A stretch of DNA of 64,000 bases from a virus. Lineage: Duplodnaviria; Heunggongvirae; Uroviricota; Caudoviricetes. The notes beneath the pieces were generated by a model. That model had not been told where the DNA came from and ran no database searches. It saw only the letters and a list, made by a program, of their open reading frames with translations. The stretch is taken from IMG/VR virus record IMGVR_UViG_2571042445_000002, one strand, 5' to 3'. The stretch's first letter is position 1; each line of letters opens with the position of its first letter. Position numbers and translations under genes: made by a program. Shown piece after piece: positions 17,298-59,520 of the stretch.

Positions 17298-17930
17298 GTG
17301 AGTATTTTAAATTCAGTTTCAGTTACTTTCAACACTTCTGAGTATAAAAACAACACTGAATACCACAAAAAAATCAAAGGTCATCAGTTGAGTTTTTTTG
17401 CTCGTCATAGCGGTTTTCTTTCCCCTTCACATAGCGCCATTATTGCCGAGTTCGCCAACCTGGCAGGAGCTACCGATGAATACATGATCCGTCGCTCATA
17501 TGCGGATATGTCCGAGATTACAGGACGCAGTATTTCTACTGTGCGCCGGGCATTTGCCGAAGCGACGAAGTGCGGAATGCTTGTTAAGCAGCATCAGGTA
17601 GCGAATAACAATGCTCAGGTGTGTAACGTGTACCGGTTTACAACACAATTTCTCCACTTCATTCATGTAGCAATGGAGATAGGGAGTAAGCAGGGCATCA
17701 AATTTGCCAACGCCACAAAACTGGTTAAGCAGTTGATTTCAAAGGTTCGTTATTTTTTTGAAACTGGGAACCCCCTGTTCAAATTGAACAAGTCCCCCCA
17801 TGTTCAAAATGAACAGCCAATAGAAAATAAGAGTCACTCTATAGCCAAAAGAAGAGAAAGATCATGCGCGGTTCAGCCAAAGGCTTCACCAGCAGATAGT
17901 TCTCAAGCGGATAATGGGGGGGCTGGATAA
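17298..17930 (+). CDS. HTH protein, possible RepL-like lytic replication protein
   Basis: 210 aa, GTG start; winged-helix-like segment ITGRSISTVRRAFAEATKCGML; downstream of an operator motif as P1 kilA-repL is. Confidence 0.3.
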   Translation: MSILNSVSVTFNTSEYKNNTEYHKKIKGHQLSFFARHSGFLSPSHSAIIAEFANLAGATDEYMIRRSYADMSEITGRSISTVRRAFAEATKCGMLVKQHQVANNNAQVCNVYRFTTQFLHFIHVAMEIGSKQGIKFANATKLVKQLISKVRYFFETGNPLFKLNKSPHVQNEQPIENKSHSIAKRRERSCAVQPKASPADSSQADNGGAG

Positions 17931-18261
17931 AAAACCAGTAATCAGGGAAGAACATACCAACCACTGCCTGGCGGCGGCAAAAGCGAGAGCTGCAAAGCGT
18001 CGTTCAGATGAGGGGCACGCAAAACGGCAGGCTCTGTATCGTACCGCTGAAAAGCTGGCAAAAAAATTTGCATGGATACGTAGTGCCGCTACAGCAGTGA
18101 ATAAGCCTAAACAATCCAGTGCCCTGGATTTCTCAATGGATTATTCTGGCTCCCAGGGGTGTGCAACCATTGGTGAAGCCTTTGACCTGATGAAACAGCG
18201 TGGCTATCGGTCTGAATTTGACCGGGAAGACTGGTCAATTCCGGAGGGCTTTCGGGGATGA
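17914..18261 (+). CDS. basic hypothetical protein
   Basis: 115 aa, overlaps upstream gene. Confidence 0.25.
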   Translation: MGGLDKKPVIREEHTNHCLAAAKARAAKRRSDEGHAKRQALYRTAEKLAKKFAWIRSAATAVNKPKQSSALDFSMDYSGSQGCATIGEAFDLMKQRGYRSEFDREDWSIPEGFRG

Positions 18262-18350: not shown

Positions 18351-18539
18351 GAATGTATGATTTATATCGTCACTAAAAAACAGCATCTGATAAAAATTCT
18401 GTTGATCTTTCTAATGTTCAGGCTTATATTCATGCCGTCGTAGCAAATTCTGCGACCGGGTTTAGCAGCCTGAATGTTAGTGCGGACAACCGCAGATATC
18501 CGATATTGCGGTATTTTTGTGTCCGTAAAACCGCGTTAC

Positions 18540-18677
18540 GCCCAAATTATGGTGGGGCGTGATGGGGAGGCTTCGGCCTGCTGGTTTCACTAACGCCAGT
18601 CTGCTAACCCCGTCACGTCCTGCCACCTGTTTAGCAGCGGGTAGCAGGTTGTTAAACCTGTTAGTGAGGCCGTAACT
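18540..18677 (+). ncRNA. candidate c4-like antisense RNA / structured leader
   Basis: hairpins (e.g. gaggc-UUCG-gcctg) in the leader just upstream of icd-like gene. Confidence 0.25.
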
Positions 18678-28697: not shown

Positions 28698-28872
28698 AAA
28701 TAACAAGTTGGGTAAATGACATACAATTTACCCGGCTTGTTGACCCGCATCACCATTTACTCTAAAAACAAGTCCGACCTGTTGCATCCGCCTATCTCTT
28801 CAGTAGTATTCCCCTCGGTTTTGATAAAACTAACGCTCTTGTTATTATCGTGTTCATGATTTCAGGAAGTTT

Positions 28873-28888
28873 GTGTTAGAAATTTGAT
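28873..28888. promoter_or_regulatory. operator-like motif TGTGTTAGAAATTTGA overlapping a start codon
   Basis: motif family member overlapping the VRR-NUC gene start. Confidence 0.5.
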
Positions 28889-29330
28889 GCGAAGACGCAG
28901 GCATCATAGTGCGTATTCTGAAATATCCCCGCACGCTGCTGCACTGAGAGAGTTAGAAAGAAATCCTGACTTATTAAAACGGAATTACGAACATTACGAA
29001 CAGGTTCGCGTTCTGGATTGGCTGTATCGCAACATGCGATACGTGTATGAGCACACACACTCAACACCGAACGGCGGCCTGAGAGGCAAAAGGACAGCCA
29101 TTAAGATGGTGGCAGAAGGTCAGAAGAAGGGCTATCCGGACCTTTCTATTGACCTTGCTCGTGGTGGGTATCACGGAATGCGCATTGAGATGAAGCACGG
29201 GAGAAACCGTCTGACTCCCGAACAGCTCGTCTGGATGACTCGCCTCACGGAAGCAGGCTATTACTGCTTTGAGGCGCGCAGTGCCGATGAAGCCATAAAA
29301 GCTATCACTGAATATGTAAATCTTGATTAA
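28887..29330 (+). CDS. VRR-NUC domain nuclease
   Basis: TPNGGLRGKR...GYPDLSIDL...RIEMKHGRNRLTPEQLVWMTRLTEAGYYC fits the VRR-NUC pattern. Confidence 0.5.
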   Translation: MRRRRHHSAYSEISPHAAALRELERNPDLLKRNYEHYEQVRVLDWLYRNMRYVYEHTHSTPNGGLRGKRTAIKMVAEGQKKGYPDLSIDLARGGYHGMRIEMKHGRNRLTPEQLVWMTRLTEAGYYCFEARSADEAIKAITEYVNLD

Positions 29331-29344
29331 ACGGAGAAATCGTT

Positions 29345-29545
29345 TTGCGTTTACTTAACGTGGCTGAACTTATCCCTGCCAGTGCTAACGTTGTTGCTCG
29401 TCGCTGCTCATGGCCTCATTCTTTCTGTATAGAGCTTAAAAAGATGGATGATGGGGCATTAGAAGCCCGAAACATAGTTACCGGCGACAAGGTATGCATT
29501 ACCCCGGAAAGCGCGAAAGCCAATGATTGGGAGTTTGTTCATTGA
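29345..29545 (+). CDS. hypothetical small protein
   Basis: 66-aa ORF within the same operon. Confidence 0.25.
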   Translation: MRLLNVAELIPASANVVARRCSWPHSFCIELKKMDDGALEARNIVTGDKVCITPESAKANDWEFVH

Positions 29546-29853
29546 GCAGAAAACACCACGTAAATCTGACGTTTGCTGATGACGCCGGAAGAACCAGAAG
29601 CATAACCATGAAAGTTGCTTCCAGGAAAGTAACCGCGCCACTTATACGAGAGGCCGTAAGTGAACTTGATATGAGTGAGAATGCAGCTCTGTTATCGGTA
29701 AGCTGGCTGGGGAAAATGACGGATCAGGAATACTCGGATGGTATACCCCACGGTGAGCGGCAGATAGTAAAGCGCGCGTTTAGAATTTCAGAGGTAGTTG
29801 TCGTACTGATAGCTTTGATTTATATGGCATACATGCTACTCCAACACGTCTAA
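29527..29853 (+). CDS. membrane-anchored hypothetical protein
   Basis: 108 aa with C-terminal hydrophobic helix VVVLIALIYMAYMLL; followed by strong terminator. Confidence 0.3.
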   Translation: MGVCSLSRKHHVNLTFADDAGRTRSITMKVASRKVTAPLIREAVSELDMSENAALLSVSWLGKMTDQEYSDGIPHGERQIVKRAFRISEVVVVLIALIYMAYMLLQHV

Positions 29854-29862
29854 ACGGTCATA

Positions 29863-29888
29863 AACCCGCCAGTTGGCGGGTTTTTTGT
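29863..29888 (+). terminator. rho-independent terminator
   Basis: aacccgcc-agtt-ggcgggtt followed by TTTTTTG. Confidence 0.7.
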
Positions 29889-29926
29889 TGCCTGAGTCTT
29901 TTTATTGAAATTGCATACTAATAAAA

Positions 29927-29942
29927 TATGTTAGAAAACTAA
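29927..29942. promoter_or_regulatory. operator-like motif TATGTTAGAAAACTAA
   Basis: motif family member about 20 bp upstream of the 402-aa gene. Confidence 0.5.
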
Positions 29943-29962
29943 TTTCAAGAAAGGGAACAAAC

Positions 29963-31171
29963 ATGAGTCAGCAAGTAGAATCATCAAGCCTGGAGATCAT
30001 CTCAACCGCAATTGAAACGCTGCGGACACAAATCGCGCTTATACAGAAACGAAATCCGGGCGATGACCTGTCAAAGCGACTGCATGAGAGCGTCATTGCC
30101 ACTACAGATAACCTGGTGGCGGAAATCAACCAGCTCCTTGATGATGGGGCAGTTGATTACAATAAGCTGGTGGATCAGTTTGAGGAATATCAGCAAGCCG
30201 TTAATGATGGCTTGATCCGTTTTTCTCAAGTCACTGGTGTATCAGCGACAGTTGAAAGCCTGGGGGATGCAGTTAATCAATTTGCCGCGAATATGCGTAA
30301 TGAGATCGGCAATCTGGAGGCGCGTCTTGAGCAGGCAAATACACTGCGCAAATCTGCTGAAGTCGATTTGAGTCGTTACAAAAAAGACTATCCGCCAAGC
30401 CTGACAAAACGACTGGATGTTGCGGAGAAAGATAACCGCACGCTGAAAAGAGAGCGTCGGGAACTAAAAGAGCGTTTAACCAAGCTAAATCAGCAATGCG
30501 TTGAGTATCAAGGCGAACTCGTCACACTGCGTAAAAAGTTAGCAGCGGCGCAGAGCATTATTGAAACATTGAAACGAGAGTGCTCAGAGCTTGGTCATGA
30601 TCTGAATCGCGCCTGTGGCATGGGGCAAAGGCCAGAGACATTCCCGCTAATGTATGACGGAAGAGAAGCTATTGCCTATATCCATGAGTTTCCGCATGGT
30701 CTGGTCGCGGAGACTGGGCAACGTGGCGAAGCGTTGCTGACGGCAAATTACCATCAGCAAATCAGAACCAGCCGCCTGCTGACGATGGATGTGATCCCGT
30801 CAGTATGGGGAACGCCGCTTTACTACCGAATTCCTGGCTTCGAAACTGACTGGAATACCGACATAGACGAATGTCTGGCAGATAAAATTATGGCGTACCT
30901 TGAAACGGATTTTCCACGCTTGCATCGCCGGATTATGGACTCTAAGGATGCACCGATCGACGAATTGAAAATGCGTCCAGAGACGTTGGAGGCAATCAAG
31001 CAGACTGAGTTTGATACAGTGTTCAGTGTGGCCTGCATTCCAAGCAGCTTTCATGAAAGCATTCCGTTCATGCAGGGCGATCGCCGTCAGGAAATAATTG
31101 ATGCTTGCCGGGTATGGGCGAACGAGTGGGATAAGAAGAACGGTGGAGTTGAAAATCTTTACGGGAAATAA
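29963..31171 (+). CDS. coiled-coil hypothetical protein
   Basis: 402 aa; N-terminal half strongly coiled-coil; good RBS AAGGGAAC. Confidence 0.45.
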   Translation: MSQQVESSSLEIISTAIETLRTQIALIQKRNPGDDLSKRLHESVIATTDNLVAEINQLLDDGAVDYNKLVDQFEEYQQAVNDGLIRFSQVTGVSATVESLGDAVNQFAANMRNEIGNLEARLEQANTLRKSAEVDLSRYKKDYPPSLTKRLDVAEKDNRTLKRERRELKERLTKLNQQCVEYQGELVTLRKKLAAAQSIIETLKRECSELGHDLNRACGMGQRPETFPLMYDGREAIAYIHEFPHGLVAETGQRGEALLTANYHQQIRTSRLLTMDVIPSVWGTPLYYRIPGFETDWNTDIDECLADKIMAYLETDFPRLHRRIMDSKDAPIDELKMRPETLEAIKQTEFDTVFSVACIPSSFHESIPFMQGDRRQEIIDACRVWANEWDKKNGGVENLYGK

Positions 31172-31172
31172 T

Positions 31173-31206
31173 GTATTAGAAAATTAAAATTGTTTTTCTA
31201 ACATAT
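31173..31206. promoter_or_regulatory. operator-like inverted pair
   Basis: TGTATTAGAAAATTAA and inverted TTTTTCTAACATA at the entry to the ncRNA/tRNA island. Confidence 0.5.
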
Positions 31207-31322
31207 TGATTATGTAGTTAACTTAACATAGAATTTTTCGTGCTGGTGGGGAGCTTCCCATGTCGCTTGCGGGTTTGATAGTCACTTCATTGTCTTTCCC
31301 CACCAGCATCAAACAATTTTAA

Positions 31323-31336
31323 GTGTTAGAAAGTAA
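31323..31336. promoter_or_regulatory. operator-like motif GTGTTAGAAAGTAA
   Basis: motif family member. Confidence 0.4.
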
Positions 31337-32515
31337 ATTTTAAGGTAAGGGAAAGCTCCGGCACCGTGCAAATACATGCCCGGCAGGTTTAGTGCGTAAA
31401 GTGGTTTCAGCGAGAGCATTTTACGGAGTAAACGACAGTGACTTGAGCCACGGAAGGTCTTTTTATGGTGTTCATTGATGATGATCTGGCAGTGAGTATG
31501 TTAAGTGGGCCAGGCTGCATCGGGTCATCATCAGTGCACATCCTCAACGTTAAGGAGGCGCAGAGTTGGGTTTTCCTCTTATTTTGCTGACTCTGAGTCT
31601 CCTTAACGTTGCGGTAATGCACCTATGCGGATGTGGCCTTGCATTGTGTCTTGAAAGAATGGGGTAAGGCCGGGGATATCCTCAGGGGGAGGCACCCCCG
31701 CTGCAACGAACAGCCACAGACGGCAGTCGAGTGATGGAAACGTGCAAAGACTTTAAACCTCGTTACGGCTGGCGTGGCAAACGCGACAACCGAGACAGAG
31801 CGGTGACGGGCGGAGAGAGAGCCGCTTCAAGATAAAAGCCGACTATGGATTCCTTTCTGCGGGCCTTTGAAAGTGAATCTTGCTCAGGCAGTCGGCTTTT
31901 ATGTTGATACGTAGCGATAACCGCGACAGGCGCGGCGGTAAGTATGGCGGGGTTATTCCTTCCCCGTTGAGGACACCGAGTTGCCAGGTTGACCATACGC
32001 CTAAGTGGCAATACCGCGAGTGGGATATTTGCCCACCTTCGGGTGGGTGTTTTTTCAGTGTTTTCGTCATGGTTAGCGACTTTGCGGCGGTTTAGAACCC
32101 GACCATTAAAGTAAATGCAAACGATGATCTGATGATGGTAGCGGCCTAAGAAGCCTGACGCCACGGGGTATGAGTCGTCCCCCGTCAAAAAATCGACCGC
32201 AGAGTGTCCCCGTCTGTGTATTAGGGAACGGGGAGGCATAACAGGCAAGGGCGCTGGTGTGATTAACCAGATGAATGAGAAGGGTCAGGTCTTTCTGGTC
32301 AGCGCCCTTACCTGTTACGTCCCTCCCGCGTAACAGCCATTGGTTAATGGCTTTCTGGGATAATGTCTTGTAACGGGTATATCCCGTCATGCTGAAGGCG
32401 CTAATCACGCTGGAAGCCAGGGTTATGCATCCCCTGTTACCGAATTGCAGCCAGGGCGCGGTGCGCCGAAAAGCATACGGAGGTGGAAGCCCTCGCCGGA
32501 GACGTACCCGGCAAG

Positions 32516-32591
32516 TGATGGTGTAGCTCAGTGGTAGAGCAGTTGGCTGTTAACCAACTGGTCGGTGGTTCGAATCCACTCACCATCGCCA
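32516..32591 (+). tRNA. tRNA-Asn (anticodon GTT)
   Basis: 76 nt; acceptor gatggtg/caccatc, anticodon loop CTGTTAA, T-loop TTCGAAT, 3' CCA encoded. Confidence 0.85.
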
Positions 32592-32593
32592 AT

Positions 32594-32669
32594 GCCGGTT
32601 TAGCTCAGTTGGTAGAGCGCCTGCCTTGTAAGCAGGATGTCAGCGGTTCGAGTCCGTTAACCGGCACCA
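32594..32669 (+). tRNA. tRNA-Thr (anticodon TGT)
   Basis: 76 nt, 2 nt after tRNA-Asn; anticodon loop CTTGTAA; T-loop TTCGAGT; CCA encoded. Confidence 0.85.
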
Positions 32670-32671
32670 AC

Positions 32672-32760
32672 ACAACAGGTAAGGGTATTTTGCGACGTCG
32701 GAGATCGCCGAGCTTGGCAGAGGGTTCGAATCCCTACGAAGTACCCTTACCGTTGTGATG
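32672..32760 (+). ncRNA. tRNA-like hairpin element or pseudo-tRNA
   Basis: 15-bp stem acaacaggtaagggta/tacccttaccgttgt enclosing a T-arm-like GGTTCGAATCC; no full cloverleaf. Confidence 0.3.
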
Positions 32761-32857
32761 AATGCACAGGCTGATGTGCCGCAACTACAGTAGTGCGCGC
32801 TTTGCGGGGCTTGCTACAACCCTGTGTCGGAGTTCAGCACCGACCATCACAATCACT

Positions 32858-32944
32858 GGAGAGTAGGGAGCATGGTGCTCAAGCGGTCTTGAAAACCGTC
32901 CCATTGCGCAAGCGATGATGGTTCGATTCCATTACTCTCCGCCA
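32858..32944 (+). tRNA. tRNA-Ser-like (anticodon TGA), long variable arm, atypical D-arm
   Basis: acceptor ggagagt/actctcc, anticodon loop CTTGAAA, long variable arm, T-loop TTCGATT, CCA encoded. Confidence 0.5.
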
Positions 32945-38228: not shown

Positions 38229-39266
38229 TTACCAGAGTTTTGCCGCGTACATCGTTTGTGTGAATGTGTACCCATAGCGTTCTTCAACGCTTTTACCGTA
38301 TTTTTTCCTGGCTTCAGTAAGGCGGATGCCTGTCAGGTCATCGCCGGAGGCAATCATAACTTCCAGTAGTTCCAGGTCCATTTTATCCAGCCTTGCCATT
38401 GCATCTTTAGCCTCTTGAATTTTCCGGCTAACGATCTGGTGTATGGCTGGATCGGCTTCGGCCAGCATTTTATCTGATTTGTTTTTTAAACTCTGATTGC
38501 GGATATCAATGTTTCTCAGGATATATGACTTCACGACGTAGCTTGGCTGCTGCTTTTCCAGATCACGAACCCGATAAAGGTCAAATTCGCCGAGAAGTCC
38601 GCACGGAAGCGGTTTAATGCCAGTGTAAATGGTAAGGGTGCGGCGCTCACCAACGTTGTTAACAACGGGAATCTCTGTGTTTGCTTTTTTTGCAAAGATC
38701 AGCGCACCGTGCGTACCCACTCTGAAGCGTGAAAGTCCATTGTTGCCCTCAATATTGGTGGTAATCACCACATCGGTATAACCTTCTTTTCTTGCGCGGT
38801 ATACCTCGCCCTCACGTTCAGCGGCGAAGAATCTGCGTTCTTCTTCAAGCGCACCGACAACCTGTGAAAATATCCTGTTTTTCATGCTTTTCTTTATAGT
38901 TTTATCGTATTTTTTCAACAGGTCTTCGCGCGTAAATGTTCTCGTTGTGGTTGCGCTTTGCATAACGATATGCGTACTCTGATTAGTATCCTCAACAATG
39001 AATGGGATCGGTAAATAAACCGACTCAACAATGTTTGAGGCTTTGTCATCATCCTTGCGACACAGATCAACAAAGGCTTTCCATTCGGCTATGCATTTTT
39101 CAGCTTCTTCTAATACAGCCGGATCATGTGTTAATGCAACATGGCGAAATTCCTCGCCAACATAACTGGTATCATGGAAAACAGAGTTTGCGACCACCAG
39201 CTCTTTCCACCGTTCAGCGGTTTGCAGGAACCGTTTGTACTCATTCTCGATCGACTTCTTACTCAT
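38229..39266 (-). CDS. candidate master repressor (C1 position); function unproven
   Basis: 345 aa from the internal Met (MSKKSIENEY); convergent with pacB as P1 c1 is; operator motifs in its own 5' region. Confidence 0.3.
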   Translation of the reverse strand: MSKKSIENEYKRFLQTAERWKELVVANSVFHDTSYVGEEFRHVALTHDPAVLEEAEKCIAEWKAFVDLCRKDDDKASNIVESVYLPIPFIVEDTNQSTHIVMQSATTTRTFTREDLLKKYDKTIKKSMKNRIFSQVVGALEEERRFFAAEREGEVYRARKEGYTDVVITTNIEGNNGLSRFRVGTHGALIFAKKANTEIPVVNNVGERRTLTIYTGIKPLPCGLLGEFDLYRVRDLEKQQPSYVVKSYILRNIDIRNQSLKNKSDKMLAEADPAIHQIVSRKIQEAKDAMARLDKMDLELLEVMIASGDDLTGIRLTEARKKYGKSVEERYGYTFTQTMYAAKLW

Positions 39267-39279
39267 TATTCCTACTCGA

Positions 39280-39296
39280 TTTAGTTTTCTAACATA
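39280..39296. promoter_or_regulatory. operator-like motif in the candidate repressor promoter
   Basis: TTTAGTTTTCTAACATA about 15 bp upstream of the proposed start. Confidence 0.5.
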
Positions 39297-39366
39297 AAAG
39301 TCCTGTGACAAATTTATGCCGAATAACAAGGTGAGTAAAGGATAAAACCGCTTTTTTTTGATTGTT

Positions 39367-58720: not shown

Positions 58721-59369
58721 TTAAGTTGAATTGTGAGATTCGCCGTTGTACATTCACAACCGATTGGTACACCGGTCAACTTTTTGAGACAAACCGTTTG
58801 GTTTTTCGTATGATTGCCGCCGCCATACCAATGGCGGTGCAATATAGGTGGCTGAAAAGCCCCCGTTGACTCACGGTGTTCCAACCTTTATTGCGCCGCC
58901 ACCAGACCGTGGAACAGTCGATGGCGGCTCCGAAAGCAAGGAGTCACTACACTATGAACAGCTACTGTCTTTTCCCATCACTCGTTGTCCGCCACTCACG
59001 CGATAATCTGCATTCTTTACTCGCGCTGGGGGTGTCAAAATGACCGTTCGCTACCTCAACTTTCAAATCCAGAACATCACTGGCGGTTGCTATGACTGGT
59101 TTGTCACTCTCGGAAAAGAAGTGATCACCGGAAAGCTGGATGAAGTGAAAGCTAAAGCAATGGCCTACGCCTGCAAGCAAGCCCAAAAGAAGAAAAGAAA
59201 AGCATAAGAAAACACACAGTTGCGCCCTGGCATTATCGTGGGGTATATTTCTACGGCACCTTAGAAAAACGGGTGCCGGGATTGGAACCCCGGATAATGT
59301 CAAAGGCGACACAGACGCCGAACGCGTCTTTTTTTGTGTCATGCCATCGCACAGCCATACTTAGCGTTT

Positions 59370-59520
59370 AGCTCAGAGATCAATGGTAGTGCTGGCTGGG
59401 CTGCCGAAAGGCAGGCCGGTTCCCTTTGACGCCGGTAGTTCCAACCCAGTCAGTGCTACCGCCATTGAGATTGGAACCTCACGCGGTAGCTCCTTAACTT
59501 AGTCAAAGGAGGCTGCCAAT
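59370..59520 (+). ncRNA. candidate c4-like antisense RNA / structured leader (copy 2)
   Basis: hairpins (ctgcc-GAAA-ggcag) upstream of the second icd-like gene. Confidence 0.25.

Follow-up and report, generated by a model that had tools for sequence, protein, structure and literature searches.

A putative repressor-controlled pmgM-orf-pmgR operon with a VRR-NUC nuclease gene in a D6-like phage-plasmid

In this study, we analysed a 64-kb stretch of viral DNA (the window), in which a gene for a VRR-NUC nuclease and two small genes follow a predicted repressor operator. By sequence comparison, the window is a D6-like phage-plasmid of the P1 family and this region is its pmgM-orf-pmgR block. We consider it probable that the block is an early operon which is gated by the repressor of the plasmid prophage. 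The genes and their regulatory logic are already annotated in the phages P1 and D6; the original prediction of an operator-gated nuclease operon is correct and not new.

Results

Relationship to phage D6 and to P1

E. coli plasmids of ~90 kb were found with 99.8% identity to the 1.9 kb around the operon. In PLSDB, 113 plasmids were matched (97 from Escherichia, 14 from Salmonella and two from Shigella), nearly all of them non-mobilizable. Phage D6 is 81% identical in the same 1.9-kb region, and a BLAST analysis of the whole window revealed collinearity with the first 46 kb of the D6 genome, comprising the tail-fibre, lysis, dar, portal/protease, repL, darB, pmgS, tRNA, lpa, pacAB and c1 genes. 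It is this collinearity, together with the identity, on which the assignment to the D6-like phage-plasmids rests.

In the D6 record (MF356679), orf12 is annotated as 'similar to P1 pmgM', orf11 as hypothetical and orf10 as 'similar to P1 pmgR'. The three genes have the same order and the same neighbours as in the window, with darB, ulx and orf13 preceding them and pmgS following. D6 and the window share the operator core, the -10 block of the promoter and the terminator, whereas the sequence linking -10 and operator has been exchanged in D6. The synteny darB-ulx-orf13-VRR_NUC-ORF2-PmgR-like-PmgS was also detected in a Raoultella plasmid and in one metagenomic contig. In P1 the gene order is rearranged: pmgM follows pmgL beside gene 26 and pmgR-pmgS lies 3 kb away, whereas in the window pmgM-orf-pmgR forms one unit after darB-ulx and pmgS has an operator of its own. 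PmgS comes next after PmgR in both. The features detected are compiled in Table 1.

Table 1. Positions of the genes and of the predicted regulatory elements (window numbering unless D6 is given)
Feature	Position	Strand	Remarks
Late-promoter-like boxes	3309, 8189, 11979, 14348, ~21055	+	before the R, lydA, ddrB, prt and darB operons
Late-promoter-like boxes in D6	19215, 25241, 31531, 38135, 45511		
Operator	17105		before repL
Operator	18315		before the C4 RNA/icd/ant immunity-I region (C4 RNA 18545-18630)
Hairpin with 17-bp stem	28701..28741	+	between orf13 and the operon; -22.4 kcal/mol, z = -5.8
Predicted sigma-70 promoter	28821..28848	+	TTGATA-16 nt-TATTAT; 10/12 consensus positions; extended -10 TG
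Predicted repressor operator, single (monovalent)	28874..28890	+	TGTTAGAAATTTGATGC; PWM score 23.8; ~+19 to +35 from the predicted transcription start
VRR-NUC nuclease, P1 PmgM homologue	28884..29330	+	148 aa from TTG 28884, or 147 aa from ATG 28887
ORF2	29345..29545	+	66 aa; TTG start; GGAG 8 nt upstream; 14-nt gap after the nuclease gene
ORF3, PmgR-like	29542..29853	+	103 aa; TTG start overlaps the ORF2 stop (TTGA)
Intrinsic terminator	29862..29889	+	AAACCCGCC-AGTT-GGCGGGTTT then TTTTTTG; ends the operon
pmgS promoter	29905-29932		TTGAAA-16-TATGTT; -10 overlapped by operator TGTTAGAAAACTAATTT
Operator TGTTAGAAAACTAATTT	29929..29945 (strong site from 29925)	+	before pmgS; invariant in 7 sequences
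Operator, overlapping inverted pair	31170/31183		partner half-sites by PWM scan
Operator, overlapping inverted pair	34819/34832		before lpa
c1-like prophage repressor, presumed operator-binding protein	38229..39266	-	80% identical to D6 C1
Operator	39274-39298		directly before the c1-like gene
Operator, overlapping inverted pair	53227/53240		before an HNH endonuclease gene
Operator, overlapping inverted pair	58054/58067		before ref

The nuclease is a homologue of P1 PmgM

As had been proposed, the first gene of the operon encodes a VRR-NUC protein. The Pfam profile PF08774 (VRR-NUC) matched residues 65-133 with 26.2 bits (E 9e-6), above the gathering cut-off of 23.8, and the VRR-NUC structure psNUC (PDB 4QBL_A) was matched with E 1.1e-16 over query residues 39-147, in an alignment which spans the long beta1-beta2 linker of psNUC. 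The outcome that the original prediction had named as refuting, the lack of a VRR-NUC profile hit, did not occur. Among the PHROGs, phrog_2363, the P1 PmgM family (E 1.5e-48), and phrog_5702, 'Holliday junction resolvase' (E 1.2e-35), were detected. The protein is 55.9% identical to P1 PmgM over 91% of its length (E 2e-37) and 92% identical to the product of D6 orf12. The catalytic motif residues, as read from the sequence and the 4QBL alignment, are D86 (GYPD), E102-M-K104 and Q114. K104 and Q114 are spaced by 10, which matches the Lys-Gln spacing specific for VRR-Nuc proteins, as in K47/Q57 of stNUC (PMC4103454).

The proteins psNUC, stNUC and saNUC are known as stand-alone bacterial or phage VRR-Nuc dimers which cleave four-way junctions (PMC4103454). 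Their single-domain architecture and their D, ExK and Q motifs (PDB 4QBL, 4QBO, 4QBN) are all shared with the nuclease of the window, which differs from them by an additional stretch of ~38 residues at its N-terminus, with many Arg and His. An N-terminal extension of ~37 aa in P1 PmgM is absent here. By homology, the nuclease is predicted to be a dimeric, Mg-dependent and structure-specific enzyme of the Holliday-junction-resolvase type. Of the two roles considered originally, recombination or replication fits such a dimeric resolvase homologue (PMC4103454), while the degradation of host or competitor DNA found no support. In P1, pmgM is dispensable: CRISPRi led to an efficiency of plating of 0.38, scored as non-essential, and the deletion was non-essential, too (PMC10695390).

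Translation start of the nuclease and its annotation

An in-frame TGA (28857-28859) shuts the nuclease frame upstream, and ahead of residue 51 the frame contains no ATG, GTG or TTG other than TTG 28884 and ATG 28887, which are therefore the only starts retaining the conserved N-terminus. Within the N-terminal 40 codons the differences from D6 are almost only synonymous, so that this part must be translated. In RefSeq, the PGAP annotation of a 99.8%-identical plasmid (NZ_LR890273.1 27969-28193) contains a CDS of 74 aa that starts from ATG 29106 (window 29106-29330). In the lineage of the window the gene is under-called by PGAP, with 74 aa versus 147-148, and the short version would drop the first helix and the first strand of the domain, both located within the psNUC alignment. 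ORF2 and ORF3 are absent from several plasmid records, ORF2 being often uncalled.

The overlap of the operator with the start codon, a feature of the original prediction, was found as described: the site at 28874-28890 contains the ATG at 28887-28889, and TTG 28884 overlaps as well. This overlap is real in the window and lineage-specific in its detail. In the D6 lineage the operator lacks an ATG, and the TTG annotated as start falls within the predicted -10; at least some D6-lineage transcripts must therefore begin further upstream. In more distant relatives, an ordinary start codon is located no more than ~15 nt away from the operator core. One of them (L015) has an ATG five codons upstream, and the Raoultella plasmid (L013) has GTG at the place where D6 has GTT. 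The structure of the RNA around the start codon was no better than that of shuffled sequences (z = -0.8).

In the D6 lineage (L001 4435-4470), the conserved nuclease N-terminus was observed without an ordinary in-frame start near the operator, and a mini-ORF of D6, ATGGGTGTGTTAGAAAAATAG, crosses the operator and finishes on an A-run. A programmed -1 frameshift from this mini-ORF through the operator was considered for the missing start and rejected as a general mechanism. One plasmid carries a 1-nt deletion in the A-run and would need the opposite shift, and other relatives possess an ordinary in-frame ATG or GTG nearby.

The small genes and the end of the operon

The nuclease and the two small proteins had been described as one operon, and the arrangement of the genes agrees with this: the ORFs are co-oriented, a gap of 14 nt separates the first two and start and stop codon of the last two overlap (TTGA). 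The TTG start of ORF2 is found at the same position in distant relatives in which gene callers missed this ORF. ORF2 belongs to a narrow orphan family with five close homologues and 10 representatives in 1.8 billion clusters. Its product is predicted to form a small SH3-like beta-barrel. No Pfam match was obtained for ORF2 at E <= 1. With regard to DUF2829 (Tad2/AcrIIA7), Foldseek against ModTad2 gave E 0.98, and an exhaustive profile search gave no DUF2829-sized relatives.

For ORF3, TTG 29542 is most likely the start, since the phrog_9115 profile begins there. Besides this profile (E 5e-50), the P1 PmgR family phrog_3177 was matched with E 6.8e-10, and the comparison with P1 PmgR (72 aa) by BLASTP gave E 9e-8 and 28% identity over 65 aa. 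The N-terminal ~68 aa represent the PmgR-like part. P1 PmgR lacks the C-terminal transmembrane helix that is predicted in ORF3. All D6-like versions of ORF3 have this added C-terminal helix, which is poorly conserved in sequence and always hydrophobic. The D6 counterpart itself shows only 51% identity and has a different C-terminal tail. In the AF2 model, a beta-beta-alpha-beta unit is followed by a long helix (71-102); the fold search for ORF3 was uninformative. In P1, pmgR is essential according to its deletion, and the mutant yields tails and incomplete heads (PMC9024508).

Behind ORF3, the strong terminator of the original prediction was recovered. It starts 9 nt after the ORF3 stop and consists of a GC-rich 9-bp stem (6 GC pairs), a 4-nt loop and a T-tract. 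In 7 sequences with differing flanks, the stem and the T-tract stay unchanged and only the loop varies.

A repressor operator motif distributed over the window

In the 64 kb of the window, 14 copies of TGTTAGAAA, the core of the operator motif, were counted compared with 0.68 expected, and none of 100 shuffles reached 14. From the aligned copies, an extended consensus of approximately TGTTAGAAAATTAATTT was deduced. Of the 14 exact cores, twelve lie between genes or at the ends of genes; the other two are intragenic and have poor 3' halves. Partner half-sites were added by a PWM scan, and neighbouring genes were assigned by collinearity with D6 and by PHROG matches. Since the motif is strongly over-represented and strong copies precede the c1-like gene, lpa, repL, c4/icd/ant, ref, an HNH gene and pmgS, it behaves, as far as can be read from its distribution, like the operator of the prophage repressor.

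The c1-like protein, which presumably binds these sites, shows a distant similarity to P1 C1 over its full length (pairwise BLASTP E 1e-7, 21% identity over 241 aa); by tblastn against the phage database no match to P1 was obtained at E 1e-3. The C1 regulon of P1 comprises 17-bp monovalent and overlapping bivalent sites, and the layout in the window is the same. The P1 record lists C1 operators of both types (e.g. Oc1ab) before c1/coi, the operator O26 (former Op82) before pmgL-pmgM and OpmgRa/b (former Op86a,b) before pmgR-pmgS. As in the window, the pmgM and pmgR operons of P1 combine a 17-bp asymmetric operator with sigma-70 promoters before the genes. However, the consensus of the window does not match that of P1, ATTGCTCTAATAAATTT, which argues for a D6-type immunity and not for the immunity of P1.

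Two loci of the C4 antisense RNA were observed in the window, one at 18424-18630 with an a1/b1 target element and one at 59256-59466 with an isrK-like RNA. Each of them is located upstream of an icd/anti-repressor pair, and the window therefore has two modules of the immunity-I type. The gene repL, which encodes the initiator of lytic replication, is broken into two ORFs (17298-17930 and 17914-18261) by a 1-nt insertion relative to D6 at ~17915, beside a run of seven G. This may be a true frameshift or an error in sequencing the homopolymer.

Three further operator copies, one overlapping inverted pair and one single site, are found at 31170-31344 in an ORF-free stretch after pmgS. They lie upstream of a tRNA cluster on the + strand (Asn 32517, Thr 32594, Ser 32858 and Met 33339), which suggests a tRNA operon under repressor control. 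In the D6 record (MF356679 7145-7850), the tRNA genes are recorded on the strand opposite to the Rfam and ARAGORN calls in the homologous part of the window (32517-32944). Here, the strand annotation of D6 is probably wrong.

Operator and promoter of the nuclease operon

The operator copy at the nuclease operon is, judged by its sequence, among the weaker ones. Its 5' core fits the consensus and four of the eight positions in the 3' half deviate; the PWM score of 23.8 compares with 24-30 for the strong sites and less than 16 for the two intragenic cores. The core is kept in D6, in five plasmids of two lineages and in the more distant L015, with adjacent bases diverged or replaced. The predicted sigma-70 promoter is found upstream, and its -10 block TTGTTATTAT does not vary among 7 sequences from two lineages. 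The operator is located ~25 nt downstream of this promoter, in the position of a roadblock and not over the -10 or the -35. This differs from the pmgS operator TGTTAGAAAACTAATTT, which overlaps the -10 of its promoter and which would control pmgS and not the nuclease operon.

Late promoters and the hairpin upstream of the operon

A late-promoter-like box, AAAT[CA]ACA[ACT]ACT with a -10-like element after it, was derived from five D6 sites and from those before R, lydA, ddrB, prt and darB. The pattern was found eight times, with 0.64 expected, and is similar to the -22 box in late promoters of P1, for example AAATGACTA of LP26. A similar sequence, AAATGACATAC at 28714, is located in the loop of the 28701-28741 hairpin. 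As an Lpa-dependent late promoter this candidate is weak: it breaks two positions which are invariant in ten good sites, and the D6 version is worse.

The hairpin itself has no T-tract on the + strand, and its upper stem is kept in D6. Possibly, the darB-ulx-orf13 transcript has its 3' end here. A T-run was observed on the minus strand only, with no converging gene evident there. Between darB-ulx-orf13 and the operon, no strong terminator was found, so that read-through from the late darB promoter is possible.

Discussion

In the mechanism we consider most probable, the c1-type repressor would occupy the asymmetric 17-bp site at 28874-28890 in the prophage state and block transcription just after initiation. 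After inactivation of the repressor, or upon infection, the operon would be transcribed as an early lytic unit from the promoter at 28821-28848 to the terminator at 29862-29889. The nuclease likely cuts branched recombination or replication intermediates in the concatemeric phage DNA and might thereby keep headful packaging from being blocked. By analogy to P1 pmgM, its action would be helpful and not essential. For the PmgR-like protein, a function as head-completion factor is suggested by P1 PmgR, which is needed for filled and tail-joined heads; here it would be membrane-anchored. Repressor control had been called tight in the original prediction. The motif indeed behaves like a repressor operator. 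The tightness is presumed; the copy at this operon is one of the weaker ones and lies downstream of the promoter.

The main rival explanation is late read-through. The operator would then be weak or vestigial, and the genes would belong to the late morphogenesis phase, expressed mainly as the last part of the Lpa-dependent late transcript of darB-ulx-orf13, or from a late promoter situated in the hairpin at 28701-28741. The degenerate 3' half of the operator and its position downstream of the sigma-70 promoter are consistent with this, and so is the annotated start of the D6 lineage, which lies upstream of the sigma-70 -10. However, the operator core is retained in all lineages examined while neighbouring bases change, and the near-consensus promoter with its extended -10 is conserved. 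A source of late transcripts is available in the late-promoter box (AATTAACACACT...) before darB at ~21055, from which transcription would meet, after orf13, a hairpin without a + strand T-tract. The late-box-like sequence at 28714 could serve as a second source, but it differs from the ten bona fide late boxes at the two invariant positions. Further points in favour come from P1, where PmgR is a morphogenesis factor and a late promoter, LPpmgL, is present besides O26 before pmgL-pmgM. As annotated for P1, early and late modes can nevertheless coexist. Taken for itself, we regard late expression as rather unlikely.

Far less probable is an offensive or counter-defence nuclease directed against host or competitor DNA, or a part of the Dar anti-restriction system, whose toxicity would be silenced in the lysogen and perhaps inhibited by ORF2: VRR-Nuc domains act as toxic T6SS effectors (PMC9635880), and the operon is under putative repressor control, directly follows the anti-restriction genes darB-ulx and has a small orphan gene immediately after the nuclease, but among solved structures the best match is a Holliday-junction resolvase of the stand-alone type and not a toxin domain, the protein is without a delivery or targeting domain, the adjacency to dar genes is not conserved, as P1 pmgM is not beside them, and knock-down of P1 pmgM had little effect (PMC10695390). 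A search for defence-system membership with PADLOC gave no matches.

Conclusions

The repressor-gated early operon proposed here is the D6-lineage version of a known block which is present in more than 100 sequenced plasmids, and it will not surprise a P1 specialist. Its importance beyond annotation is little. According to the sequence comparisons, the 'putative morphogenetic' protein PmgM of P1/D6-family phage-plasmids is a VRR-Nuc protein, a nuclease of the Holliday-junction-resolvase type. P1/D6-family phage-plasmids are frequent in clinical E. coli and Salmonella. The working operator consensus and the late-promoter box for D6-type elements could aid the annotation of these elements.
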